64,000 nucleotides of DNA from a virus. Lineage: Duplodnaviria > Caudoviricetes. The stretch covers positions 25,707 to 89,706 of IMG/VR virus record IMGVR_UViG_2930430511_000001. One strand, given 5' to 3'. Below, piece after piece: positions 6,302 to 24,278 of this stretch. Made by a program: the position numbers and the translations under genes. Each line of letters begins with the position of its first letter. Positions within the stretch are counted from its first letter, which is position 1. Below the pieces are notes generated by a model, which worked only from the letters and a program-made list of their open reading frames with translations, ran no database searches and had not been told where the DNA came from.

Positions 6302-7357
6302 TCAGATCAGGGTCTGGGCCACCTTCACCATCTGCTCAAAGTTCGACGGCGTCATTCGTTCCTGAAGCGCGCGCGCCAGCACCTCAGGCTTCTGAAGGGG
6401 TAGCCAATTCTCGTGCACGCTTTCCAGGCTATCCCGAAGGTCTCGGGTGCCCTCACCATCCTTGGCGACCTGATCGTGGCGATCTGGCTGACCGTCCTCT
6501 CCCAGCGTCCTCGGGGCCGGGGGCTTCAAAACCGGGTTTTGAACACTCGCCGGTTGCTCCGGAACCGCCGCTTCTTCGGCGGGCTTCAAAACCGGGTTTT
6601 GAGCCTGAGCCTGCTTCGGCTGCCGCTTAGCCTTCGGTTTGGAGGCCTCTTCCTGCATCTTGGTGACCGCAGCACGCTGCGCCTCAGGATCCTGAGTTCT
6701 TCCCGCCAACGCCCGAGCTTCCTTGATCTTGAAGCCCGGGGTGCCGACCTGCTCTTGCACGTCGGGAGCCAACTTCAGCAACGCCAGTCGGTGAGAGACG
6801 TACATCTGCGACTTGCCGATCCGCGCGGCTACGTTGTCCTGAGAACCGTGCTTCTCCACCATGCGCTGCAAGAACTCGGCCTCTTTGATCGGGTCGATGT
6901 TCTTGCGGTGGATGTTCTCGATGATGACGGCCTCGTCGATCTGCCCGTCGTCGTCACCGAGATGGTCCTGCACCCGGATATCGACGCGAGTCCACCCCAG
7001 TTGCCGGGCGGCGGCAAGCCGACGGTTTCCAGTGACGACGACCCAGTCGACAGCCTCGAGGGATTTCGCGTGCTGTGGCTTGAGACGCAGGTACACGTCT
7101 CGCGAAACGACGGACAGTCCCTGAAGCTGGCCGATCTCCCGCATGGAGGCTTTGAGCTCACGGAACTCGTCGTCCTCGTCGGAGTAGTCCGCGTCGGTAC
7201 GCGGGTTCTCCGGGTTACGGGCGATGGTGTGCATCAGCACCGTAACGGGCGGCTCTTGAGGTTCCGTTGGGCCGCTGCCTGTGTCCTCGCCGTCACCCGC
7301 AGCTTTGGGGTTGTTGGTGCCGAGGAGGGAGGTCCAGCTGTCCTTCTTCTTCGCCAT
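6302..7357 (-). CDS. parB: ParB partition protein
   Basis: NPR, GNRRLAA (ParB box II), IENIHRKNIDPIKEA, HTH VAARIGKSQMYVS; downstream of parA. Confidence 0.95.
   Translation of the reverse strand: MAKKKDSWTSLLGTNNPKAAGDGEDTGSGPTEPQEPPVTVLMHTIARNPENPRTDADYSDEDDEFRELKASMREIGQLQGLSVVSRDVYLRLKPQHAKSLEAVDWVVVTGNRRLAAARQLGWTRVDIRVQDHLGDDDGQIDEAVIIENIHRKNIDPIKEAEFLQRMVEKHGSQDNVAARIGKSQMYVSHRLALLKLAPDVQEQVGTPGFKIKEARALAGRTQDPEAQRAAVTKMQEEASKPKAKRQPKQAQAQNPVLKPAEEAAVPEQPASVQNPVLKPPAPRTLGEDGQPDRHDQVAKDGEGTRDLRDSLESVHENWLPLQKPEVLARALQERMTPSNFEQMVKVAQTLI
6525..6602. repeat. Two parS-like palindromes inside parB
   Basis: TTCAAAACCGGGTTTTGAA at 6525-6543 and TTCAAAACCGGGTTTTGA at 6585-6602. Confidence 0.75.
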
Positions 7358-8091
7358 CAGCGCCGGTCCTTCTTGCCGGCGCCGATCTCGACCGCGAGCT
7401 GGTAGAAGTCCTCACGGGCTTCCATGGCAACCCGGTTCTTGCGGTACTGGGTGACCACAGTCCCTTCGAGGGCTGCACGCGTGTGGACCTTGTAGTGGCG
7501 GATCACGGTGTTGGCGAGCTTCCAGCCCTGCGCCTCTACGAACGCCTGGGTCTGCTCGAGGTCGGCTGTTCCGTCGCGGGGGTCCCAGTTGTTGATGACA
7601 ACGAGGTAGGGCAGCCCGAGAGGCTTGACGACCTCTTCGATGGTGTCCTTCGTCGGCATGAAGCCGAGGGGTTCCGGCTCGATGGGGACGATGATGTCGT
7701 CGGCGTTGGCCAGGACCGCGCGCATGGCGTCGGCTGCGGCGCTGTTACCGAAGGGGTCGCCGGCCTTCTGCTTCTCGTCGTCGGGGAGGTCCATCCAGCC
7801 GGGGGTGTCGATGAAGGCGTGCTTGACCTTGCGGGACTTCTTCAGCTCGGGGAAGTACTCGAGGTCCGAGCGTGACTTGGTCTGGATGAAGGAGAAGGGC
7901 AGGTCGTCTCCGACGCGTTCGGACCACCAGGTGGCTGAGCCTTGGGGGTCGGCGGAGACTGCGGCGACGTAGTTGGGTTCGCCTTCTGGGGCTGTTCCGA
8001 GGACGTGGGCTGTGATGGCCGCTGTGTTCACGGTGAGGGTGGACTTGCCGACCCCGCCCTTGCGGTTGATGAGCGCGGTGATCCGTGCCAT
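7357..8091 (-). CDS. parA: ParA Walker-type ATPase
   Basis: KGGVGKST deviant Walker A, DPQGS, IDTPG. Confidence 0.95.
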   Translation of the reverse strand: MARITALINRKGGVGKSTLTVNTAAITAHVLGTAPEGEPNYVAAVSADPQGSATWWSERVGDDLPFSFIQTKSRSDLEYFPELKKSRKVKHAFIDTPGWMDLPDDEKQKAGDPFGNSAAADAMRAVLANADDIIVPIEPEPLGFMPTKDTIEEVVKPLGLPYLVVINNWDPRDGTADLEQTQAFVEAQGWKLANTVIRHYKVHTRAALEGTVVTQYRKNRVAMEAREDFYQLAVEIGAGKKDRR

Positions 8092-12310: not shown

Positions 12311-12714
12311 TCGTGGTCTCCCCACAGCAGCAGGTCCTCGTCGGCGGGGTGCGTACGGCGGCCGCACTGCGCGGCGACGGCCACCCCGCCTGCCATGGCG
12401 CGGTGCCCGGCCTCGTCGAGGGCCCGCTGGAACCCGTCCAGCTCTTCGGGTCGCCACTGTGGGCGCAGCATCGCCTTGCCGGCCCAGATGCCGACGGTGA
12501 GCGCCATGTTCCATATCGCCTGCACGGCGTCCTCCGGCACGTCGGGGAACATCGCGGTGGGGAGCTTGTCGGGGCGCCCGGCGTGGTTGAGGAGGCCCGC
12601 GTCGAGGATGCCCGCGATGACCGCGGCGGAGCGCAGGTTGCGGCCGTGCAGGGCCTCGTCGATGGCGGCCACGTCGAGCGGGGTGGTGGTGGGGAGTTGG
12701 GGTCCGGTGGTCAT
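12307..12714 (-). CDS. Hypothetical protein
   Basis: ATGA-coupled to WhiB gene. Confidence 0.6.
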   Translation of the reverse strand: MTTGPQLPTTTPLDVAAIDEALHGRNLRSAAVIAGILDAGLLNHAGRPDKLPTAMFPDVPEDAVQAIWNMALTVGIWAGKAMLRPQWRPEELDGFQRALDEAGHRAMAGGVAVAAQCGRRTHPADEDLLLWGDHE

Positions 12715-13583
12715 GCGGCAGGCTCCAGCGTGGTGGTGGCGGGAAGGAGGATGTCGAACGTGAGCGGCTCGGCGACGATGCGGACGACGCGCAGCCGGGG
12801 ACCGGCCGGCCGGGTGGTGCGGCGGGGGCGGGGTACGCGGAGCAGCTGCTCGTAGCCGGGGAGGATCAGCTGCACCGAGCTGGTGGGCAGGCGTCGGCCG
12901 CGAGCGAGACGCCGCTGTCGGGAGCCGTCCGTATTCGGCGCGGCGGCGATCGGCACGTCCCCGTCTGGAACGACCCGCACGCCGGCCGGGAGCACGCCGA
13001 GGGTGCGGGCGGTGTCGAGAAGCTGCTGGCGGGTGGCGCGTTCCTTGTCCAGGCCGAGCAGCCCGCACAGCAAGCTCCGGTGCCAGTTGGCGGTGCGCAC
13101 GTCCATGCCGGCCCCGTACGCCACCAGCTCCTCGTCCACGTTGGTGGCCAGCGACCGGAGGACGGCCTGCTTCTGGTCGGTGCGGGCCTCGTCCAGCCGC
13201 TTGGCGTCGATCGTGGCCGCGGCTGCCGCAGGGGTCTTGGCGGTGCGGCGGGCGACGAGGTCACGGTGGCGGGCCAGGGGCAGCATGCCGCCCCACACCC
13301 CCTCCGGCTCGCTGAGCTTGCCGTCGCCGGTCTCCGACAGGGCATACGCCTCGCACTCAGCGCGCACCGGGCAGGAGCCGCACACACGCTGGGCGGCGGC
13401 TTGGCGGGCGTTGCGGGCCGACGGGGTCTCCTGCTCGTCCTCCGTGTACGGCAACCACGCATTCACGCTCACCGCAGTGTCGCCCTGCGCGCGGTCGGGC
13501 TGGTCGGGGTCCGGTGCGCAGCCGCGGTAGGCGTAGAACCGGTGATCTATCAGCGTGTAGTAGGCGCGGTTACGGCTGCTCAT
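12711..13583 (-). CDS. WhiB-family Fe-S transcription regulator with C-terminal extension
   Basis: C...CGSCPVRAEC four-Cys pattern and GVWGG turn. Confidence 0.85.
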   Translation of the reverse strand: MSSRNRAYYTLIDHRFYAYRGCAPDPDQPDRAQGDTAVSVNAWLPYTEDEQETPSARNARQAAAQRVCGSCPVRAECEAYALSETGDGKLSEPEGVWGGMLPLARHRDLVARRTAKTPAAAAATIDAKRLDEARTDQKQAVLRSLATNVDEELVAYGAGMDVRTANWHRSLLCGLLGLDKERATRQQLLDTARTLGVLPAGVRVVPDGDVPIAAAPNTDGSRQRRLARGRRLPTSSVQLILPGYEQLLRVPRPRRTTRPAGPRLRVVRIVAEPLTFDILLPATTTLEPAA

Positions 13584-14283: not shown

Positions 14284-14621
14284 CAGGCGCCTTCGGGTTG
14301 CTTGTGCTCGAAGGCGCGCTCCTGATCCTCTGGGGTGAGCGTGCGGTAGCAGGCTGCGCACAACTGATCGTCGCTGAACCGGTCGGTACCCTGGTGGTCC
14401 TTCTCGGCCTGCGGGAACGTCCGCCTTCCGCAGCGGGTGACCGTGGGGTGAAGGGCTAGCGCAATGAACGCCGATCCTCCAGAAGAGACGGCGCTGACCT
14501 GCGGACTGCGAGCGATGTCGTACGTCCCGTATTTGACAGCGATGTGTACTGTCCCGCTGCTCACGGCCTCGATGAATCGCAGTTCGGCGTCGGAGGGGAT
14601 TGGTTCCTTCCCGGCTGCCAT
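14283..14621 (-). CDS. Hypothetical protein with C/C-x2-C motif
   Basis: TGATG coupling to annealase gene; lower GC3. Confidence 0.55.
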   Translation of the reverse strand: MAAGKEPIPSDAELRFIEAVSSGTVHIAVKYGTYDIARSPQVSAVSSGGSAFIALALHPTVTRCGRRTFPQAEKDHQGTDRFSDDQLCAACYRTLTPEDQERAFEHKQPEGA

Positions 14622-15610
14622 CAGGCGGCGTTCCTCTCCTGCCGGGCGGCCTTCAGCTCCGCCAGTCGGTTCTTGAGCAGGTCCTCGATACGCGTCGGGA
14701 TCTTGTCGGGGCCAGCCGGAATAACCTCGTTCAGCAGGGACTTCGCTGTGGCCTCCAGAAGGTTCTGTTGAGTGGCGCCGGCGTTGTTCCACCCGTTGAG
14801 GACCTTCGGCTTGAACTCCTCCAGGGCCATCGCCTGAGACTGCTCCGGAGTCATGGCCGGCCGATCCGACGCGGTCTCGGACTGCTGGGCGGGCGCCGAA
14901 CGCGATTGCCGCTGCGGTTGCGCTGGCGGGGTGGCCTCAGGTCCCTTGGCCGGGGCGGGCGTCGGCTGGGGCGCAGGGCCTGGGCTGGTCCCCAGTTCGG
15001 CGGCCAGTTCTGGCGTCAGTTCCACGCCCGGCTCAATGATCTCCAGATCAGAGGAGGTCCACAGGTTCAGTGCCATGCCGAAGCGCATGCCGGCGTTGCG
15101 GATGGCGTCGCCGATGATCTCCTTGATGGCATTCGCGCCGGCTTTGCCGGTGGCGTCTCCGTATCCGATGCGGGTCATGCCGCATACCGTGAGACGAATC
15201 CACAGGCCAGGCACGTTGTCGAACTGCGGCAGGCCCCGCTCGTCGTAGGACAGCGGCTCCCAGTCCCAGAACGGGTCGGCATTAAGCAGCCGGTTCGTTG
15301 CCTCGGCGTGCCCGATGTACTTCAGGCAGATGTGCGCTTCGGTGATCTTCTGGCCGTTGCAGCGGTGGCACTTGATCTCGGTGTGCCGTTCACAGACCTT
15401 GGGCCAGCCCGTAGCGTTGCTGCACTTCTTGCAATAGGGCTGGGGCCGGTAGCGGACCTCGGACTGCACGAACGGCTCGCGAAGCTTGTGGAGGGCGAGA
15501 ATCTGCTGTTCGCGGGTGTATCCGTAGGTGCCGGCGGGGCGGTCGCTCTGGTTTTGGGTGTGCTGAGTGGGGCCCTCCGCAGTTGCGGGGGCCTGGGTGC
15601 CGTTCGGCAT
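14621..15610 (-). CDS. Rad52/Sak-like single-strand annealing protein
   Basis: LREPF...YIGHAEATNRLLNADPFWDW...LWIRLTVCGMTRIGYG...KEIIGDAIRNAGMRFGMALNLW; inserted zinc ribbon. Confidence 0.8.
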   Translation of the reverse strand: MPNGTQAPATAEGPTQHTQNQSDRPAGTYGYTREQQILALHKLREPFVQSEVRYRPQPYCKKCSNATGWPKVCERHTEIKCHRCNGQKITEAHICLKYIGHAEATNRLLNADPFWDWEPLSYDERGLPQFDNVPGLWIRLTVCGMTRIGYGDATGKAGANAIKEIIGDAIRNAGMRFGMALNLWTSSDLEIIEPGVELTPELAAELGTSPGPAPQPTPAPAKGPEATPPAQPQRQSRSAPAQQSETASDRPAMTPEQSQAMALEEFKPKVLNGWNNAGATQQNLLEATAKSLLNEVIPAGPDKIPTRIEDLLKNRLAELKAARQERNAA

Positions 15611-15686: not shown

Positions 15687-16268
15687 CTACTCGCCGGCGT
15701 CAGCCTCGGGTGCCGGGTACTTCTTCAGCAGGTACTGCTTGGCGACGACCCCCGGCGTCGGCGTCCAGCCCAGCTCCTCCGCCAGGGCCTTGCCGTGTGC
15801 CTTTGCCGCGTCGTGGAGGCCCTTGTCCGGGCGGACGTTGATGTTCTTCTGCGACTCACCGCCCGTCCCCCACGCCTTGCGTCCAGGCTGCTTCGGCGTG
15901 AACGTCCCGTCGACGAACGCCCGGAATGCCTCCTCGGCGTCGGCGGTGAGGGTGCTGCCGGCGGCCTTGGCGGCCTGGTGCAGGCGGGCCCGCTCCGTCT
16001 CGGTGGAGGCGATGGGCAGGTTGGGGTTTTTGACGTTGTGCTGCCGGTAGACGGCGGCGGCGATGTAGTCGTCGGTGAGGGTGTAGGCGACGGCGTCCGC
16101 GAGGTGTTCGGTGGTCTTGTTCTTACGGAGTCGTTCGGCTGCCTGGTTGACCAGGTCGCGGGTGGCTTCGTAGTCGCGGCGCTTTTTCGGGGGCACTCGG
16201 GGTCCTCTCGGCGGTGTGCGCCGTTCGGACCGGGGGCGGTTCGGCGGGCGCGTGGGGGTCGTCGCCAT
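15687..16268 (-). CDS. Probable DNA-binding regulator (two RHH-like segments)
   Basis: AGGAGG RBS; NPNLPIASTE and KNINVRPDKGLH beta-helix repeats; divergent from WYL gene across palindromic operators. Confidence 0.5.
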   Translation of the reverse strand: MATTPTRPPNRPRSERRTPPRGPRVPPKKRRDYEATRDLVNQAAERLRKNKTTEHLADAVAYTLTDDYIAAAVYRQHNVKNPNLPIASTETERARLHQAAKAAGSTLTADAEEAFRAFVDGTFTPKQPGRKAWGTGGESQKNINVRPDKGLHDAAKAHGKALAEELGWTPTPGVVAKQYLLKKYPAPEADAGE

Positions 16269-17294: not shown

Positions 17295-17491
17295 CCTCGC
17301 GTCCCGCACAGCAGCCGTCCCTGCCCATCCCCGAGCAGGGACGCCGCCGCGTCTGGTGCCGAGCCTGCGGACGCGAACTCCACGACCCCGACGCACGCTT
17401 CCGGGGATACGGAGCCGACTGCGATCCCGCCAACCGCACCCGCTGCCGCCGACCGGACGACATCGACCAGGACACCATTCCCGGCACCTAG
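17291..17491 (+). CDS. DUF6011-like zinc-binding protein
   Basis: CRACGRELHDPDARFRGYGADC. Confidence 0.7.
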   Translation: MTSRPAQQPSLPIPEQGRRRVWCRACGRELHDPDARFRGYGADCDPANRTRCRRPDDIDQDTIPGT

Positions 17492-18456
17492 CGCGCGGCG
17501 GCCTGTTCCTGTGCCCACTCCACCCCGCGCCGCCACTGCTCCACCCGGGCCGGCAACGGCACCCACGGACCCGGCCCCTCCCACCGGCCCGCCAACGCCT
17601 CATTCAGACGCGCCATGCCCTTCGCGAAGCCCATCCGCAGACCCTGCGCCCGCAGCGGCAGGCCCGCCTCATACGTCTGATACACGCCCCCCACCGGGCG
17701 GGCACGGGCATGCACCGTCACCCACAACGCCCCATGATCCGCACCCTCAAGCCCCCCAACCAGCCGCTCACGCACCCGCAGCCATCGCCGCAACGCCACC
17801 ACCGTCCCCGGACGCAACGGCACACGCTCCTCACGCCGCCGCCCCGACCCCTGGCGATGCCACACCGCATCCACCCACGGATCGCCCTCATCCAGACTCA
17901 CGTCCTCCACCCGGCGCGTCACCAAATCCCCCGACCGCATCCGCGAATCCAACACCAGCCCCGCACACGCCAACGACCGCGCCATCAGCGCACTCCCCGC
18001 CGCATCCGCGTCCACCAGCCGCCTGTACAGCAACTCCAACTGCTCCTGCCCGGCCACAGGCGCGAGGTCGAGGCGCTCCCGGTACACCTGCGGCACCGTC
18101 ACCTCCACCCCCACCTCCTCCCCGAGGATCACCAGGCAGTCCCGCAGCATCCCCAGCGACGACCACGACAGCGGCGTACCCACCGCCGCCGGATTCCGCC
18201 TGTCCCGGAACGTCCCCTGACTGGCAAGCTCGAGGAACGCGTCCACGCTCTCCGGCGCCAGCAGGGCCTGCACCGACCGGCCGCACCGCTCCGGCATCCC
18301 GCTATCCCCCGTGGCCAGCTCCAGCTGCCGCAGAGTTGCCCGCAGCTGCCTGGCCCGCGACCGTGACACCAGCCGGCCCCGCCGCAGCGGCGGCCGCACC
18401 TCCCACAGCCCCGGGTCCCGCGGCGCCACCCGCTCCACGACGTTCTCCAGCCGCAC
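17488..18456 (-). CDS. Tyrosine-recombinase-like protein, apparently lacking the C-terminal catalytic residues
   Basis: LVLDSRMRSGDL box I and VPL...ALRRWL...LWV fold motifs; no H-x-x-R or Tyr box; start approximate. Confidence 0.6.
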   Translation of the reverse strand: MRLENVVERVAPRDPGLWEVRPPLRRGRLVSRSRARQLRATLRQLELATGDSGMPERCGRSVQALLAPESVDAFLELASQGTFRDRRNPAAVGTPLSWSSLGMLRDCLVILGEEVGVEVTVPQVYRERLDLAPVAGQEQLELLYRRLVDADAAGSALMARSLACAGLVLDSRMRSGDLVTRRVEDVSLDEGDPWVDAVWHRQGSGRRREERVPLRPGTVVALRRWLRVRERLVGGLEGADHGALWVTVHARARPVGGVYQTYEAGLPLRAQGLRMGFAKGMARLNEALAGRWEGPGPWVPLPARVEQWRRGVEWAQEQAAAR

Positions 18457-18482
18457 AATGCCCCGCGGACTCCGCTCAGCGC

Positions 18483-19547
18483 TCACAGCCCGATCCCGAT
18501 CAGCGCGTTGTCCTGCTCGTCCCACTGGTCCACGATCTGCATGTACCCGTCCAGCACCTTCGACCCTTCCTTGTGCCCCGTGATCGCGGCGATGGCCTTC
18601 CGGTCCTTGCCGGCCCGCCGCGCCTCCGTCGCCAGCCCGGAGCGCACTGAGTGGCCAGTGAACAGCACCTCGATGTCCGCGCGCAGCCCAGCCGCGGTGA
18701 TGAGGTCCCCGGCGCGCTGCGGGGTGAGGCCCTGCGGCTGCACGGCGCCGGTGTGGTGGATGCGGCGGAACGCGTGCCGGTCCGGGTCGGCGATCTGCGC
18801 GGCCTCCTGCCACGCCTTCCAGGCCCGCACTGGGCAGGTGGCCGGGTTGGTGCCGTACGGGACAGGTACGGTCCGCGGGTCGGTCTTCGATACGCGAACG
18901 TCGACCAGGAGACCGTTGTCGTCATCGCGGATGTTCCGCAGGCGCAGCCCAGCGAGCTCGGCGCGGCGTGCGGCGATGGAGAACCCGAGGAGCAGCATGG
19001 CCTGGTCGCGGAGGCCGAAGATGTCGGTGTCGCACTTCGACACGATCAGCCGCAGTGAGTCCAGGCGCATCGCCGGGGCCTTCCCGCGGCCCCGGGCGGG
19101 TTCCTCCGCTTCCTCGGCCTTCTTGCGGTAGTCCTTCAGCAACTCGCGGGCGGCCTTGGTCGCTTCGGGGTCCACCACGACGCTGTACTGCTGCCGCAGG
19201 GTCACGGTGACGCCGGCGAGCTTGCGGTCGATGGTGGAGTAGGCGCGCTTCTCCCGGTTCCACAGGTAGTCGACGAAGGCGCGGAGGGTGCCGCGGGTGG
19301 CGGCGGTGGTGGGGATCTGGAGCTGGGTGCAGAACGCGGTCCAGGTCTTCCAGTCCGCGGCGTAGGAGCGGGTGGTGTTGTCGGGGCGCTGGTTCTGGGC
19401 ATGCTCGTCGGACGCGGCATCGAGTGCGGCGAGGCGTGCGCGAAGGTCCTCGTCGAACTCGGCGGGCAGTAGCGAGCGTACGGTGGGCAGGTGGTCGACG
19501 TCGATCAGTCTGGCGTCGACCACCTGCCCGTCAGCCTCCGAGTTCAT
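18483..19547 (-). CDS. Cre/TnpS-like tyrosine recombinase (resolvase)
   Basis: NTTRSYAADW; RDQAMLLLGFSIAARRAEL (R); SKT (K); GHSVRSG (H-x-x-R); TGH; GY; start uncertain (19523-19574). Confidence 0.9.
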   Translation of the reverse strand: MNSEADGQVVDARLIDVDHLPTVRSLLPAEFDEDLRARLAALDAASDEHAQNQRPDNTTRSYAADWKTWTAFCTQLQIPTTAATRGTLRAFVDYLWNREKRAYSTIDRKLAGVTVTLRQQYSVVVDPEATKAARELLKDYRKKAEEAEEPARGRGKAPAMRLDSLRLIVSKCDTDIFGLRDQAMLLLGFSIAARRAELAGLRLRNIRDDDNGLLVDVRVSKTDPRTVPVPYGTNPATCPVRAWKAWQEAAQIADPDRHAFRRIHHTGAVQPQGLTPQRAGDLITAAGLRADIEVLFTGHSVRSGLATEARRAGKDRKAIAAITGHKEGSKVLDGYMQIVDQWDEQDNALIGIGL

Positions 19548-19987
19548 CACGGAACGCACGGGTGCGCTCTTCACGGGCCTGAACCTCGGCCTTCACCGCT
19601 TCGTCCTTCAACTGGTCAATGGGGTGCAGCAGTTTCCCGGCTCGGTACTGTTGGGCGAATGCCACGGCAGCGGTGGCGACCTTCTGGCCGTCCAAGTCGC
19701 TTCCGGTGAACCGCGTGAACGGCTCGCCGCCGTCGGGGTCGTCCTCGGTCTCTTGGAGACGCCGCTCAAGTCGCTCCAGGTACCGGCGGACATCAGCAGC
19801 CTTCTCCCACGCGTACAAGTCGCTCCAGGTACCGGCGGACATCAGCAGCCTTCTCCCACGCGTAGCGGATGTTGCCATCCTCCATGGCGCTCGCGAGACG
19901 CCCAAAGAGGTCGAGTGCTCCGACGTACTCCTCGGCCAGGTTGTTCTCCGGAGTGCTGCCACCCAGCAGTTCGTACAGGTCCGCCAT
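19531..19987 (-). pseudogene. Hypothetical gene upstream of recombinase, frameshifted by a 49-bp tandem duplication
   Basis: Exact repeat 19767-19815/19816-19864; removing one copy joins ORFs 19793-19987 and 19531-19962 into one 135-aa ORF. Confidence 0.8.
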
Positions 19988-20004
19988 GATCGCTCCTCAA
20001 GTCA

Positions 20005-20036
20005 TGATCCTTGATATGTGAGCTTATCCCGCATCA
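20005..20036. promoter_or_regulatory. Candidate tyrosine-recombinase crossover site
   Basis: TGATCCTTGATAT-GTGAGC-TTATCCCGCATCA, imperfect 13-6-13 dyad directly upstream of recombinase operon. Confidence 0.4.
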
Positions 20037-20183
20037 GACGCAAGATCAGGAGACCGTTGCCCCAGCCGAGTGGGGCCCACCCTCGGCCAACCGGAGGCGT
20101 ACTGCCATTTGTTCGCCCAGATCGATCCTAAGCGTGGGCCCCTTTAACGGCGGATCGGCACCTCACCTCCCAAGTCAACCCGA

Positions 20184-20235
20184 ATCCTTGGATTACACCC
20201 TTGCCTTGCATCCAAGGATCGCTATCATGGGTGCA
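20184..20235 (+). promoter_or_regulatory. Promoter for small-gene array (probably leaderless) with dyad operator
   Basis: ATCCTTGGAT-N16-ATCCAAGGAT; TTGCCT...TATCAT, with the ATG at 20235 lying 7 nt after the -10 and no RBS. Confidence 0.5.
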
Positions 20236-20477
20236 TGGAGACCAATCAGACCCACGCCGAACCCGCCGTACAGGGCAGTCACTTCTGGTTCGCGACCATC
20301 ACGGTCCCGAACGCCCAGGGCTACTGGATGAACGGATACCAGGGCACCCTCACCCCGCCGCCGGGGGCTACGCGGCTCGACATGTTCAATGCCATTCGCG
20401 CGGAGATCGACGAACGGGACCCCCGCGCTCGGGGTGGCCTCATGACGACCTTCGACATCCAGCCCAACCAGTTCTGA
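20235..20477 (+). CDS. Small hypothetical protein (array gene 1)
   Basis: Clean 80-aa ORF. Confidence 0.65.
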   Translation: METNQTHAEPAVQGSHFWFATITVPNAQGYWMNGYQGTLTPPPGATRLDMFNAIRAEIDERDPRARGGLMTTFDIQPNQF

Positions 20478-20489
20478 GGATCGCGCACC

Positions 20490-20795
20490 ATGACGGACAG
20501 CACGAAGAAGCCCCGCCTCCTCCCCACCGGCAACTGCTGGTGCGGCTGCGGCAAAGAAGTCGGCCTCGGCAAGTTCTTCGCCGCCGGCCACGACAAAGCC
20601 GCCGAAGCAGCCCTCATCGCCGTCAAGTACGGCGGCTCCGTACCCGAATTCCTCCACGCCCACGGCTACGGCCCCCAGCACTCCGTCAGCCACGCCGCCG
20701 TCGACGCGGGAGTCTGGACGAAGTGCCAGCACTGCGACTACATGGGCGCCGAGGCCAGCGTCCGCAACCACACCCGCAAGTACCACGAGCAGTGA
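20490..20795 (+). CDS. Small Cys/His zinc-binding protein (array gene 2)
   Basis: CWCGCG...FAAGHD and CQHC...H..H motifs. Confidence 0.7.
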   Translation: MTDSTKKPRLLPTGNCWCGCGKEVGLGKFFAAGHDKAAEAALIAVKYGGSVPEFLHAHGYGPQHSVSHAAVDAGVWTKCQHCDYMGAEASVRNHTRKYHEQ

Positions 20796-20806
20796 GGAGC
20801 ACGACC

Positions 20807-21133
20807 ATGCCCGAGCAGATGGCGCGCCTGAGCATCGACCACGTCGAGTACCTGCTGGCCGAAGAGATCGGCGCCGACGAAGTCACCTGGAACGCCGAGT
20901 TGATCGGCCTCTCCGGCTGGGACGGCAGCGACTTCGCGATGCTCGCCGTAGTCCGGGACGGGGAGCCGTGGACGTACCTGTCCGACGACATCGACTACGT
21001 GCGGATGCTTGACCAGGCTGGCACCGACGGTATCCCCGTCGAGCTGACGCACGACATCGCTGCCGCGAAGCTGCCCATCAACCGACCCGGCTGGCCGAGC
21101 GAGTGGATGCTCCAGGCCGCCACCCAACAGTGA
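20807..21133 (+). CDS. Small acidic hypothetical protein (array gene 3)
   Basis: Starts and ends within linker repeats. Confidence 0.7.
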   Translation: MPEQMARLSIDHVEYLLAEEIGADEVTWNAELIGLSGWDGSDFAMLAVVRDGEPWTYLSDDIDYVRMLDQAGTDGIPVELTHDIAAAKLPINRPGWPSEWMLQAATQQ

Positions 21134-21144
21134 GGAGCACGACC

Positions 21145-21369
21145 ATGCCCACCAAGCCCCGCAAGCCGTGGCGCGTCATCCTGACGCAGGGCGGGATTCA
21201 GCTCGTCGAAATCGAGCACACCAGTAAGGCCAAGGCATACGACCACGTCCGCATGGGACTCCGGTCCGGCGCCGACACCGCGCAGGTCATGCAGTGGGAG
21301 GGTGGCCGCTGGTGGCACTTCGAGACCGTCCGCTCCGACGAACTCCCCGACCAGCACGCCGAGCAGTGA
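21145..21369 (+). CDS. Small hypothetical protein (array gene 4)
   Basis: Starts and ends within linker repeats. Confidence 0.7.
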   Translation: MPTKPRKPWRVILTQGGIQLVEIEHTSKAKAYDHVRMGLRSGADTAQVMQWEGGRWWHFETVRSDELPDQHAEQ

Positions 21370-21380
21370 GGAGCACGACC

Positions 21381-21569
21381 ATGGCACGCGAGGAGATCGA
21401 AAAGAAGCAGCGACGCATCGAAGGGGCGGTGTACAGCGCGCTGAACACGTTCCAGCAGACTGCCGACTGGCCCCAGCTGCGGCTTGCTCAGATGCGGCAA
21501 CACCTTGCTGAACACATCGCACGAGAGCTAGCGTTTGCGCCTGCTGCTGACGAGGCGGACAAGCAGTGA
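21381..21569 (+). CDS. Small hypothetical protein (array gene 5)
   Basis: Starts in linker, ends CAG-TGA-GGA. Confidence 0.65.
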   Translation: MAREEIEKKQRRIEGAVYSALNTFQQTADWPQLRLAQMRQHLAEHIARELAFAPAADEADKQ

Positions 21570-21595
21570 GGACGCCTACGTACAGGGTAGATCAC

Positions 21596-21630
21596 GAAGG
21601 CCCCCGCGCCACCGAGGCGTTGGGGCCTTC
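21596..21630. terminator. Hairpin closing the small-gene array
   Basis: GAAGGCCCC...GGGGCCTTC. Confidence 0.6.
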
Positions 21631-21662
21631 CGTGTTGCTTGCGGGCCGCGAAGCGGCAGGTC

Positions 21663-21727
21663 GAAACCGCAGGTTAGTGGCTTGTGCAAGATCCCGTTAT
21701 TTAATTCCCAAAACTATAGGACAGGGG
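21663..21727 (-). repeat. Right copy of 65-bp inverted repeat (partner 11844-11908)
   Basis: ...GCAAGATCCCGTTATTTAATTCCCAAAACTATAGGACAGGGG. Confidence 0.9.
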
Positions 21728-21728
21728 T

Positions 21729-23594
21729 TTAGGCGGGGAGCGCCTCACGCCACGCCGCCACAATCCGCCGCGACAGATACACATGACCCGCATCCGTCGG
21801 ATGCACGTTGTCCCCGCCCACATAGCTCGCCGCGTTGCCCGACGTGATGAACGCCCCGTGCGTCGCCAGCAGCGTCCCCGACCCGTCGTACACCGCGCCC
21901 GTCAAAGGCGACACGAACGGGAGCCCCGCCGCGGCAGCCTGTGTGCGCAGCGTTGTGTCCGTGTTCGTGATCGACCCGGCCGGGCTCGCTGTCGGCGCCC
22001 AACAACCGAGCACCAGTACCTGACATGAGGGCAACCCGGTCTTCACCGCGGAGAACAGCGACGCCGCAGCCGAACCGATCGACGACTGGCTGCCCGTGTT
22101 GTCGTTGTACCCGCCCCAGATCACCAACCTGGTCGGCGCCCACCCGACCACGTCCGCGGCCACCCGGTCCCCGAACGTCGCGTACGCGCCCGGCGTGATG
22201 TACCCCGTACCGCCCCGGCCCTCATCCCACGCATCCGTGCACCCCAGCAGCCGCGCTGCGCGATGGAACCAGGTGCCAGCGCCCCCACCCGTGTTCATGG
22301 CGGAGCCGTCCGAGATGCTGTCGCCAAGGACCATCAGCCGGCCGCCCCGCGGCGGGACGCGCCACATCGTCGCAGACGGCGGCAGGTACACCCCGCCGAA
22401 CGGGACCGTGTAGAAGTCCAACCGGATCGCCCGCGGAGCGGCGCTGCCCAGGTCAATCGTCATCAGGTGGGTGCTGCCCGCGGTGGTGCCTCCCACCGAA
22501 GTCATCAGGTCAGCGACCTTGCGGCCGTCGATGTTCAGCCGGTACAGCCCCGCCGTCTGGTAGTTAAAGCGGAGCTGGAACGTCTGCGCATCGGTTCCGA
22601 ACTCCACCGACCAGACAGCTTGAGAGCTGGTCAGCGTGCCGCGAGTGTTGGGGTAACGGGACGTCGGCAAGATGTAGGTGGAGTCCGGCGTGCCCGTGCC
22701 GACCTGGAAGGCTCCGGCGCCGAGGTAACTGAACGGTCCGGTCACGTCGGATCCGCTGAGGGTGACGCCGGCTGGCGCGTACTTGATGTAGCCGGACGTG
22801 GGCGTGCTGGTCTGCGCCACACTGATGGCCGGTGCGGAGCCCGCGTACACAGCGTCAGCGACGACCGGGTCAGGCAGGTCGCGGCGTCGCCATGCGGTGG
22901 CTACCGGGCCCTGAGGTCCGGTAGCGCCAGTCGCTCCCGTGGCACCAGCCGGCCCCTGTGGGCCCGTTGCGCCAGTAGCGCCGGTAGCTCCGGTTGGACC
23001 TTGGGGCCCTGTGTCTCCAGTGTCGCCCTTCGGCCCTTGCGGCCCCTGGTCGCCTGGCTCGCCCTGCGGCCCCTGTGCGCCGTCCGCGCCCGCAGGCCCA
23101 GCCGGCCCGGTCGGTCCGGTCGCGCCCTGAGGTCCGGCATCGCCCGTGTCGCCCTTCGGGCCAGCCGGCCCCGTCGCCCCAGTGGCGCCCGGTTCGCCCT
23201 GGGGCCCCACAGGCCCAGCCGCGTAGACGATCGTGGACGTGCCCGTCGGCGTGCCCGGGATGTCGACGCGCAGATCCCCCAGCCAGTACGGGCCACCAGT
23301 CTCCGGCACCACGATGTACGTGACGATCGGCGTGCCATCAAGAGCACGCCCCTCCATCACCGCCCACGCCGTATCCCCCGCGGCCGCAGAGACGCCCACG
23401 TTCGGCGTCAGGTCCATCTCCCACACGCCCGTGCCGTCCGGTGTGACGCTGACCGGGCCGACGATCTCCCCCGGCTCGGCCGCCACATAGCCGACAGCCC
23501 GCTCCCCCGCCATGTCCACCAGCGTCGCCGTCACCTGCACCCGCTGCGGGTCGGACAGGCCGAGCAGCTTGCCCTGCACCGTGGTCATCGCCAT
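21729..23594 (-). CDS. Collagen-repeat virion appendage with C-terminal SGNH/GDSL hydrolase
   Basis: (G-X-Y)n tract; GDSIS, GGTGY, GGYND, DNVHP blocks. Confidence 0.85.
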
Positions 23595-23600
23595 CTCCTG

Positions 23601-24278
23601 TCAGTACCTTCTGCGGTCCGGCGCCAAGCCGAGCAGCCTGTCGCCCTGCTTGTTGTCCGTGGGCGTGGGGGTTGGCTTTGGGTCAGGCGCGCCATCGCGG
23701 CGGCATACCAACGCGTCCGGGTCATAGCTGGGGGCCTGCGGTGAGTAGCCGTCCGGGCATGTCGCCCCCGCCTCGCCAGGCTCACCCCGCTCCCCCTTGT
23801 CGCCCTTCTCCCCGCGCTCCCCCTGCGGGCCCTGCGGTCCCGGAGGTCCTGCGGCGCCATCCCTGCCGTCCGAACCCCTCGCCCCATCGGAGCCGTTCAA
23901 GCCCGCGGGCCCCGGGGAGCCGTCGGTGCCGTCAGTGCCGTCTTTGCCGGGCGGGCCCGAAGGGCCGCTCTTCCCGTCCTTGCCGTCCGATCCGTCATCG
24001 CCTGCCGAACCGTTTCTGCCGTCCTTGCCTGGAGGGCCCGACGGGCCGATGTCGCCCGGCCCGCCGCGCGATCCCGGCGGGCCGGCCACGGGTGTCGCGC
24101 CCAGGCCCTGTACCTGCGCAGCGAGCTGGTCGCGCGCCTCGTTCGCGTCGGACAACTGTCGCGACAGGAGCAGAAACCCCGTCACAACGGCGGCCAGCGC
24201 CATGGCGGCGACGATCGCGCCGGCCGCAGCCAGGTAATCGCCCCTCCGCCGCTCCTTGCGAATTTGTGCCCGGCTCAT
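23601..24278 (-). CDS. Membrane-anchored collagen-like protein of lysis cassette
   Basis: N-terminal TM, coiled coil, (G-X-Y)n, CPDGY...C end. Confidence 0.75.
   Translation of the reverse strand: MSRAQIRKERRRGDYLAAAGAIVAAMALAAVVTGFLLLSRQLSDANEARDQLAAQVQGLGATPVAGPPGSRGGPGDIGPSGPPGKDGRNGSAGDDGSDGKDGKSGPSGPPGKDGTDGTDGSPGPAGLNGSDGARGSDGRDGAAGPPGPQGPQGERGEKGDKGERGEPGEAGATCPDGYSPQAPSYDPDALVCRRDGAPDPKPTPTPTDNKQGDRLLGLAPDRRRY

Follow-up and report, generated by a model that had tools for sequence, protein, structure and literature searches.

A Stop/Shine-Dalgarno/Start Linker Between Small Variable Genes of ZL12-Like Streptomyces Plasmid-Phages: A Candidate Homology Patch for Single-Gene Exchange

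Organization of the Small Gene Array

We analyzed a stretch of 64,000 nucleotides (the window, to which all positions refer unless stated otherwise), comprising bases 25707-89706 of the 89,706-bp virus record IMGVR_UViG_2930430511_000001. The record carries direct terminal repeats, and the element is a circular relative, about 89.7 kb in size, of the Streptomyces plasmid-phage ZL12. It was assigned to the ZL12-like plasmid-prophages because its recombinase gene matches the ZL12 "integrase/recombinase" gene pZL12.36c at 82.5% nucleotide identity, and because genes for ParA/ParB, a WhiB-like protein, endonuclease VII/HNH, an annealase, and tail fibers are present in the window. The subject of this work is an array of five short open reading frames (ORFs) of the plus strand, orfA to orfE (20235-21569), which are partly joined by an identical linker. 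From comparison with its relatives, the array probably is a hypervariable accessory-gene region between a Cre-like recombinase module and the end of the tail-fiber operon.

The array is preceded by a promoter-like site, TTGCCT-16-TATCAT (20201-20228, plus strand), and by a dyad ATCCTTGGAT/ATCCAAGGAT with 10-bp arms (20184-20193 and 20210-20219, plus strand) flanking this site; both are pattern matches only. The ATG of orfA (20235-20477, 80 aa) stands 7 nt past the -10 hexamer, therefore a leaderless start is suggested. A degenerate A/B junction, TGAGGATCGCGCACCATG (20475-20492), leads to orfB (20490-20795), which encodes a Cys-rich protein of 101 aa and belongs to a conserved "anchor" family, F00, that heads the linker-joined part of the arrays. 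Linker 1 (20779-20809, with the exact 20-mer at 20790-20809) connects it to orfC (20807-21133, 108 aa), linker 2 (21117-21147, 20-mer at 21128-21147) follows before orfD (21145-21369, 74 aa), a cassette of family F05, and linker 3 (21353-21383, 20-mer at 21364-21383) before orfE (21381-21569, 62 aa), which closes the array. The three linkers are exact repeats (family D1) composed of tail codons of the upstream gene, a TGA overlapping the Shine-Dalgarno (SD) sequence GAGGAG, a spacer of 8 nt, and the ATG. A terminal half-linker (21549-21572, repeat family D3) has the tail codons followed by CAGTGAGGA (21564-21572), without spacer or ATG. Between the array and the convergent tail-fiber gene lies a hairpin (21596-21630, inverted repeat I6) with 15-nt arms, 87% complementary, and a 5-nt loop; it has no T-run and hence was not listed by the terminator scan, and it is kept in relatives (aligned with L196). 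The preliminary description of this locus had reported the five ORFs, the three exact junctions at 20790, 21128, and 21364, degenerate copies at the first junction and at the array end, the closing hairpin, and a promoter and dyad site ahead of the array, and all of these were found again.

The 20-mer CAGTGAGGAGCACGACCATG occurs in three exact plus strand copies, where 0.01 copies were expected and none of 100 shuffled sequences reached three. No additional copy was found in the window at up to 3 mismatches or in the whole record at up to 2 mismatches. The proteins of the last four ORFs end in EQ, QQ, EQ, and KQ, hence in Gln as described before. The GC content at third codon positions was Streptomyces-like, with 0.86-0.92 for the array ORFs and 0.73 for the last one. 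Paralogy among the ORFs, which would speak against cassettes, was looked for by BLASTP; all five are open and non-paralogous, the best pairwise E-value being 0.17. Pfam, PHROG, and Atlas gave no lead on the function of the five, for which the preliminary description had considered a role such as anti-defense. No Pfam or PHROG match was obtained for orfA or for the ORFan cassettes orfC and orfE, and in Atlas orfB matched only clusters named "hypothetical protein", while orfC yielded no usable match. Among 10 cassette representatives from related arrays, two matched above the Pfam cut-off (HTH_17 and DUF6354) and two had sub-threshold Phd/YefM-like N-termini. An Rfam search of 19900-21800 gave no match up to an E-value of 0.1. 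Two other candidates for the layout were rejected, a CRISPR-like array, as the "spacers" are coding ORFs of 190-330 nt, and a readthrough or frameshift fusion, as the downstream frame shifts with spacer length.

A Junction Common to Related Elements

Relatives were gathered via the recombinase protein, which yielded 7 viral and 8 genomic loci on 13 distinct contigs with 78-91% identity. At these loci the same place, divergent from the recombinase gene and before the tail-fiber gene, holds small same-strand ORFs joined by ..CACCGAG(A/C)AG-TGA-GGACACCGACC-ATG. Eight such junctions were counted in one locus, four to five in one, three in one, and one or two in others. By this comparison, the 20-mer of the window is a local variant of a family-wide junction, ..CACCGAGAAG-TGA-GGACACCGACC-ATG. 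An exact search with the consensus 19-mer AGTGAGGACACCGACCATG found 31 genome stretches (24 of Streptomyces, one of Actinacidiphila, and six single matches in unrelated taxa, which were taken as chance) and 28 viral stretches, many of the stretches sitting on contigs of 85-95 kb. The exact 20-mer was found in 0 stretches of viral_contigs. Linkers of the window type, with the spacer GCACGACC and tails ending in ..EQ, were present as single copies in three other arrays and in at least two copies in a 95.7-kb contig of another organism (X5).

In 74 loci covering 673 kb, 138 of the 160 occurrences of the word AGTGAGGA terminate an ORF (30 codons or longer), and a second ORF begins 2-13 nt past the GGA; the reversed control word occurred 10 times. 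At least one junction was found in 58 of 68 Streptomyces-type loci, at least two in 32 and at least four in 14, with some contigs counted twice. A logo of 130 non-redundant contexts showed conservation from -10 to +16 around the T of the TGA and, more weakly, to -20, with the consensus CACCGAGAAGTGAGGACACCGACCATG; its downstream half is partly set by the search word, and the periodic C farther upstream is codon bias. The conserved stretch measures 27-37 nt and flanks unrelated genes in many elements. Because the tail amino acids are poorly conserved outside T-E-K/Q, it is the DNA and not the peptide that is conserved at the junction.

A generic translation start signal had been named as an objection to the cassette idea. 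The exact 17-mer TGAGGAGCACGACCATG gave one match per stretch in at least 120 genome stretches over many phyla and in 17 viral stretches; the matches in unrelated taxa were taken as chance. When an 11.2-Mb host genome was searched with a 16-nt pattern at up to 1 mismatch, the plasmid-phage contig held 4 of 7 among the matches listed. At 2 mismatches, host genomes of 7.5-11 Mb gave 37-56 matches per strand versus 17-36 for the control, which was too noisy. As far as these genome searches indicate, the linker motif is not a generic Streptomyces start signal.

Further copies and variants were observed. A consensus-type linker, ..ACCACCGAGCAG-TGA-GGACACCGAC-ATG, lies at record position 15731 (approximately 15712-15746), outside the window and about 30 kb from the array, where it joins two plus strand early genes; the related element G005 has one linker copy about 28 kb from its own array. 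A second, shorter junction class, ..(A)AGGAGAAC-TGA-(C/T)C-ATG, was seen in L001 (ZL12), L148, L155, and L196 with tails ..KEN or ..KED, and replaces the long linker at some orfB-family junctions. ZL12 itself retains a mere linker remnant, ..ACCGAGCAGTAA, and L144, which has a close recombinase and no AGTGAGGA word, carries a TAA version of the junction. In the literature, two 15-nt strings of the linker were absent, and the 12-mers occurred, among the papers listed, only in ones that look unrelated by title. A literature search on Streptomyces phage intergenic repeats returned nothing relevant, and none of the papers naming pZL12 concerned this region, by title.

Gene Content and Breaks of Homology at the Linkers

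The 234 linker-flanked ORFs were grouped by single-linkage clustering, with some upstream starts over-extended, into 35 families and 73 singletons. In 12 contexts the orfB family (F00) had 10 different downstream neighbors plus one case at the array end, and a preceding linker was absent in all 12. The orfD family (F05) is variable in position; its nine contexts comprised eight different downstream neighbors plus one end, and five upstream neighbors plus three cases without an upstream linker. Family F04 was always last in its seven contexts, with five different upstream neighbors and two cases without an upstream linker. From these neighbor counts, the array ends are formed by anchor genes, while the middle is variable. 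Among the five ORFs of the window, orfB alone recurs in the recombinase-matched loci (3 of 16 including ZL12, two being one contig), and orfC was absent from the 16 fetched relatives. Homologues of orfB fell into 98 clusters, every named one of which belongs to Streptomyces or Streptacidiphilus. A fixed gene content and order, which would argue against exchange, was not what the relatives displayed, as their content varies.

The borders of homology between arrays were inspected in several pairs. L188 and L190 have one 85-codon cassette in common, 99% identical over 293 bp, and this identity opens in the upstream linker and closes in the downstream linker. The flanks of the cassette are unrelated. 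Identity is just 70% between the neighboring orfB-family genes, and in L188 an additional cassette intervenes. Comparing the window with L196, orfB (92% nucleotide identity) is followed by orfC, orfD, and orfE in the former and by one unrelated cassette in the latter, and homology restarts at 21579, six bases past the terminal half-linker; the same restart was found for X4 and X5. The 95.7-kb contig X5 matches 20450-21136 (orfB, linker, orfC) at about 90%, and this homology ends at 21136 inside linker 2. Of orfA, both ends are present in X5 and the middle is diverged. Farther downstream, orfD (21136 to 21359) is replaced by 490 other nucleotides and orfE (21386 to 21579) by 911, so that linker 3 (21359-21386), matched at two places of X5, is the sole part of 21136-21579 common to both. 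In a 10.5-kb soil contig orfB is kept and 20780-21579 is replaced by 657 nt.

For a count of such breaks, 15 common segments (at least 90% identity, at least 100 bp) between non-collinear arrays were used. Their scorable ends lay inside 49-nt linker windows in 16 of 29 cases, compared to a background of 4.2%, and in 12 of 23 without three duplicate pairs. The ends outside the linkers were mostly 5' ends of the orfB family, which is itself without an upstream linker. In 33 family pairs, the median nucleotide identity was 0.65 for the ORF bodies, 0.95 for the linker cores downstream, and 0.83 for those upstream. The proposal that an ORF plus its linker behaves as an exchangeable cassette is supported by these data, as relatives differ in the genes between the junctions and homology breaks inside the junctions.

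One array was noted for internal repeats. Two cassettes of L155, at reverse-complement coordinates 1743-1888 and 2672-2813 within its first 6.2 kb, have identical stretches of 76, 28, 20, and 16 nt in common; the copies of the 76-nt and 28-nt repeats lie about 925 nt apart. Such a duplication of a cassette inside one array is what unequal linker exchange would yield.

The Recombinase Module and the Integron-Like Layout

The recombinase gene (18483-19574, minus strand) is divergent from the array. Its product matched PF00589 with an E-value of 6.8e-12 and 45.9 bits (cut-off 27.1), and its best solved relative in the PDB was P1 Cre (E 4.6e-9), in agreement with the earlier designation as Cre-like. 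In the alignment to Cre, the box I Arg and the HxxR motif (GHSxR) are in place; the catalytic Tyr was read from the sequence only (..VLDGYMQ), outside the Cre-aligned part. The best NCBIfam models were XerC/XerD with about 41 bits against cut-offs above 329. The archaeal XerA model ("site-specific tyrosine recombinase/integron integrase") reached 31 bits against a cut-off of 220, and no integron-integrase model of NCBIfam came near its cut-off.

The preliminary description had interpreted the locus as integron-like, with ORF-plus-linker units moved either by the Cre-like recombinase or by the annealase. In the former case, the linker would be the site of the recombinase. The layouts are superficially alike. 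Same-strand promoterless ORFs follow one promoter-like site next to a divergent tyrosine recombinase gene, gene content varies among relatives, and in many relatives the array lies close to a tyrosine recombinase gene. However, attC hairpins are absent. The linker has no inverted arms or hairpin (self-fold -3.4 kcal/mol), and none of the inverted repeats detected lies at a linker. The enzyme is not of the IntI type and stays far below the cut-offs of the XerC/XerD and XerA models. Moreover, the linker is not bound to one recombinase: near-consensus linkers adjoin recombinases that are only 26-39% identical to the present one at 11 distinct loci (L158, L166, L171, L174, L188, L197, L198, L201, L204, L211, and L213, with L202 left out as a repeat of L166), the AGTGAGGA word is missing at 5 of the 13 distinct loci with 78-91% identical recombinase, and one more linker lies 30 kb off in this genome. 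Recombinase-driven movement is weakly refuted by these observations, and we regard it as very improbable. Most likely, the recombinase would be the multimer resolvase or the integrase of the element, with no part in linker exchange. By analogy with the biology of phage P1, this would be the simplest role for a Cre-like enzyme on a ParAB plasmid-prophage.

Two further ORFs accompany the recombinase gene on the minus strand. Directly downstream, a second, weak tyrosine-recombinase-like ORF (17488-18480; PF00589 with E 1.6e-4, below the cut-off; phrog_6657, function unknown, with E 3.7e-74) may be a degenerate or accessory recombinase partner. Upstream, a 49-bp segment is duplicated in tandem without a mismatch inside a small ORF (19531-19987; copies at 19767-19815 and 19816-19864; repeat family D2, 100% identity). 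Since 49 is not divisible by 3, the ORF is split into two overlapping frames, 19793-19987 and 19531-19962. The duplication is either a recent frameshifting event or an assembly artefact, and no homologue of this ORF was found in 16 related loci.

A candidate catalyst of short-homology exchange is encoded at 14621-15610 (minus strand), where the product matched phrog_3290, "single strand annealing protein" (E 9.4e-47). It had been called a Sak-like annealase. The annealing protein was recovered by this match; the Sak affiliation was not, as the Pfam model Rad52_Rad22 (Rad52/Sak) had no match anywhere in the record. NCBIfam gave no match for the protein either.

Proposed Translational Coupling and Single-Gene Exchange

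The junctions have a uniform layout, in which a TGA overlapping the SD sequence GAGGA follows tail codons for ..T-E-K/Q and the ATG stands 4-10 nt on. The 3' end of the host-type 16S rRNA, found by a short pattern and confirmed with Rfam, is ..GGAUCACCUCCUUUCU, and GAGAAG-U-GAGG can pair with it at -10.7 kcal/mol. In the second junction class of the relatives, ..AAGGAGAAC-TGA-CC-ATG, the SD sequence is likewise inside the last codons. An extended SD sequence was rejected as a sufficient explanation, since the energy of the duplex is unremarkable. In 70 full-length homologues of orfB, a conserved ..RKYH is followed by variable tails (EK in 6, EQ in 6, ED in 9, EN in 4, no tail in 2). Because the tails vary past this point, the tail of the upstream protein is written by the start signal of the downstream gene. 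Where the offset is 15 nt, for example at 20792-20809, the ATG and the GTG of ..CAGTGAGG.. share a reading frame, and simple ORF callers consequently add five codons (VRSTTM.. or VRTPTM..). The ATG is the likely start, since the GTG is out of frame at other spacer lengths.

These features raise the possibility of a pure expression signal, that is, a start-associated sequence kept for translation or for the binding of a host or phage factor, with mosaicism produced by illegitimate recombination and selection and without a role of the linker. In line with this, 138 of 160 cases have the SD core 4-10 nt ahead of the ATG, there is a second junction class that also contains an SD sequence, and arrays are not homogenized. 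The junction is also asymmetric, used in a single orientation and confined to non-structural genes, as is the start-associated sequence of mycobacteriophages in the relevant sections of PMC3203893. However, SD pairing is merely average, and conservation extends into the tail codons of unrelated proteins without amino acid conservation past T-E-K/Q. For the latter reason the junction copies are to be seen as homologous DNA and not as convergent signals; the conservation of tail codons and spacer is unexplained by translation. In addition, the 99% identical cassette of L188 and L190 is bounded inside common linkers, and illegitimate joins would not recreate the same 27-37 nt every time. Altogether, an expression signal without any part in recombination seems rather unlikely to us.

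We favor, with some reserve, the explanation that the linker is a translational-coupling signal which doubles as a short patch of homology, through which single genes are exchanged by homologous recombination, possibly via the annealase of the element, and that site-specific recombination is not involved. The small ORFan genes would be read from one promoter as a single transcript, and the first job of the linker would be translational coupling through the TGA inside the SD sequence ahead of the ATG. Because the same 27-37 nt flank unrelated genes in many elements, the linker could at the same time serve co-circulating elements as a portable homology patch. Homologous recombination between the linkers of two elements would then replace, insert, or delete single genes, catalyzed by the RecA of the host or, more aptly for a short patch, by the single-strand annealing protein that the element itself encodes. 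According to the pertinent part of PMC3945230, efficient pairing needs a minimum of 23-27 bp with Red-beta and of 31-34 bp with RecA, and the conserved linker length fits both. An annealase acting on short homology, one of the two routes proposed in the preliminary description, agrees with the observations and is close to this explanation.

We are aware of several points that weigh against this explanation or limit it. Joints at gene borders are also expected from selection alone, so the break statistics by themselves do not prove crossover in the linker. The loci obtained with the 19-mer are skewed toward the consensus. Between copies, identity at the 26 positions flanking the fixed 8-mer reaches only about 62%, and many linker pairs therefore offer less than 27 bp of perfect identity. 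Linker similarity was 0.628 within arrays versus 0.614 between arrays, with 281 of 2000 permutations reaching the observed value; as there is no excess within arrays, frequent intra-array conversion was not seen. The idea of element-specific linker variants (stoperator-like, or by concerted evolution) was rejected on the same result. The three identical copies in the window are then a local exception, for which block acquisition or local conversion is possible. With respect to coupling, SD pairing at the junction is ordinary, as 84 ORF starts of this genome gave a mean of -8.8 kcal/mol with a standard deviation of 3.1. Finally, the support for cassette exchange at the linker comes from comparison, and no event was directly observed.

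Other copying mechanisms were considered as well, namely replication template switching (copy-choice) at the linker or an unrecognized small mobile element ending in linkers. Short direct repeats favor slippage and template switching, and the L155 array contains a duplicated cassette segment with exact repeats of 76 nt and 28 nt. On the other hand, no transposase or nuclease was found by Pfam or PHROG to accompany the cassettes, and exchange between elements needs two DNA molecules, for which homologous recombination is the simpler route. We judge these mechanisms improbable.

The homology patch could also be taken one step further, to a linker that is maintained for recombination itself. The array would then be a natural "recombineering" gene bank, with a 27-37-nt connector sized for the annealase of the element. 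Co-resident relatives would swap single accessory genes (e.g., for counter-defense), each gene paying with a linker-encoded C-terminal tail, and the system would correspond in function to an integron that has no integrase. We offer this extension as a speculation that is possible but doubtful.

Neighboring Genes

Other genes of the window, all on the minus strand, encode ParB-/ParA-like partition proteins, a WhiB-like regulator, and an endonuclease VII/HNH protein with a Lar-like segment (6305-8091, 12714-13583, and 91-1053; PHROG matches). By their annotation they are consistent with a plasmid-prophage lifestyle. The convergent genes beyond the hairpin, 21729-23594 and 23601-24278 (minus strand), encode collagen-like tail fibers with long Gly-X-Y runs in their translations. 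A C-terminal GDSxSDG motif, read from the translation only, suggests an SGNH/GDSL hydrolase domain in the product of 21729-23594. This gene is variable too, being 42-73% identical among relatives.

Comparison With Known Systems and Significance

The nearest described system, as portrayed in the relevant parts of Arbiol et al. (2010; PMC2839356), is that of the PeSL cassettes of T4-type phages, in which a repeated motif lies between ORFans and recombination shuffles genes and makes mini-circles. Common to both are a hyperplastic region of small non-essential ORFans, copies of a short conserved regulatory motif between them, and indels or replacements that are bounded by the motif. In contrast, PeSL consists of a sigma-70 early promoter and a terminator stem-loop, whereby every gene is transcribed separately. 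The present linker is a stop/SD/start junction within one operon, has no stem-loop, and encodes the last codons of the upstream protein. Unlike the per-gene PeSL promoters, only one promoter-like site was detected ahead of the array by the promoter scan. Furthermore, the carrier here is a temperate Streptomyces plasmid-phage, whereas PeSL was described in a virulent myovirus.

The nearest described motif is the start-associated sequence (SAS) of Cluster K mycobacteriophages, with the 13-bp consensus GGGATAGGAGCCC (Pope et al., 2011; PMC3203893). Both are asymmetric motifs with an SD core a few bases before the ATG, in one orientation, at non-structural genes of different families. SAS further resembles the linker in being uncommon in the host genome and in overlapping, at some sites, the stop codon of the gene upstream. 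The sections of PMC3203893 that deal with SAS draw no link to gene shuffling. Unlike SAS, the linker has another sequence than GGGATAGGAGCCC, is longer (27-37 nt), always includes the stop codon, and is clustered in one array, while SAS is spread over half the genome.

In the modular theory of Susskind and Botstein, short conserved border "linkers" were reportedly proposed as sites of homologous exchange. Unlike the multi-gene lambdoid modules of that theory, the unit here is a single small gene, with one well-defined linker in dozens of elements. The term "modular genome hypothesis" itself appears in the part of PMC9836094 that touches on the subject.

It is an old question whether phage mosaicism arises at short conserved borders or from illegitimate joins sieved by selection. 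Here, one connector joins 35 or more gene families and 73 singletons across dozens of plasmid-phages of Streptomyces, apparent single-gene swaps start and finish within it, and the present element has its own annealase, so that this question becomes testable in a culturable host. The linker is also an annotation marker for small real genes that are missed or mis-started by gene callers, as the true ATG often shares its reading frame with the GTG of ..AAGTGAGG... Finally, it may serve as a natural, host-adapted operon connector for Streptomyces engineering.

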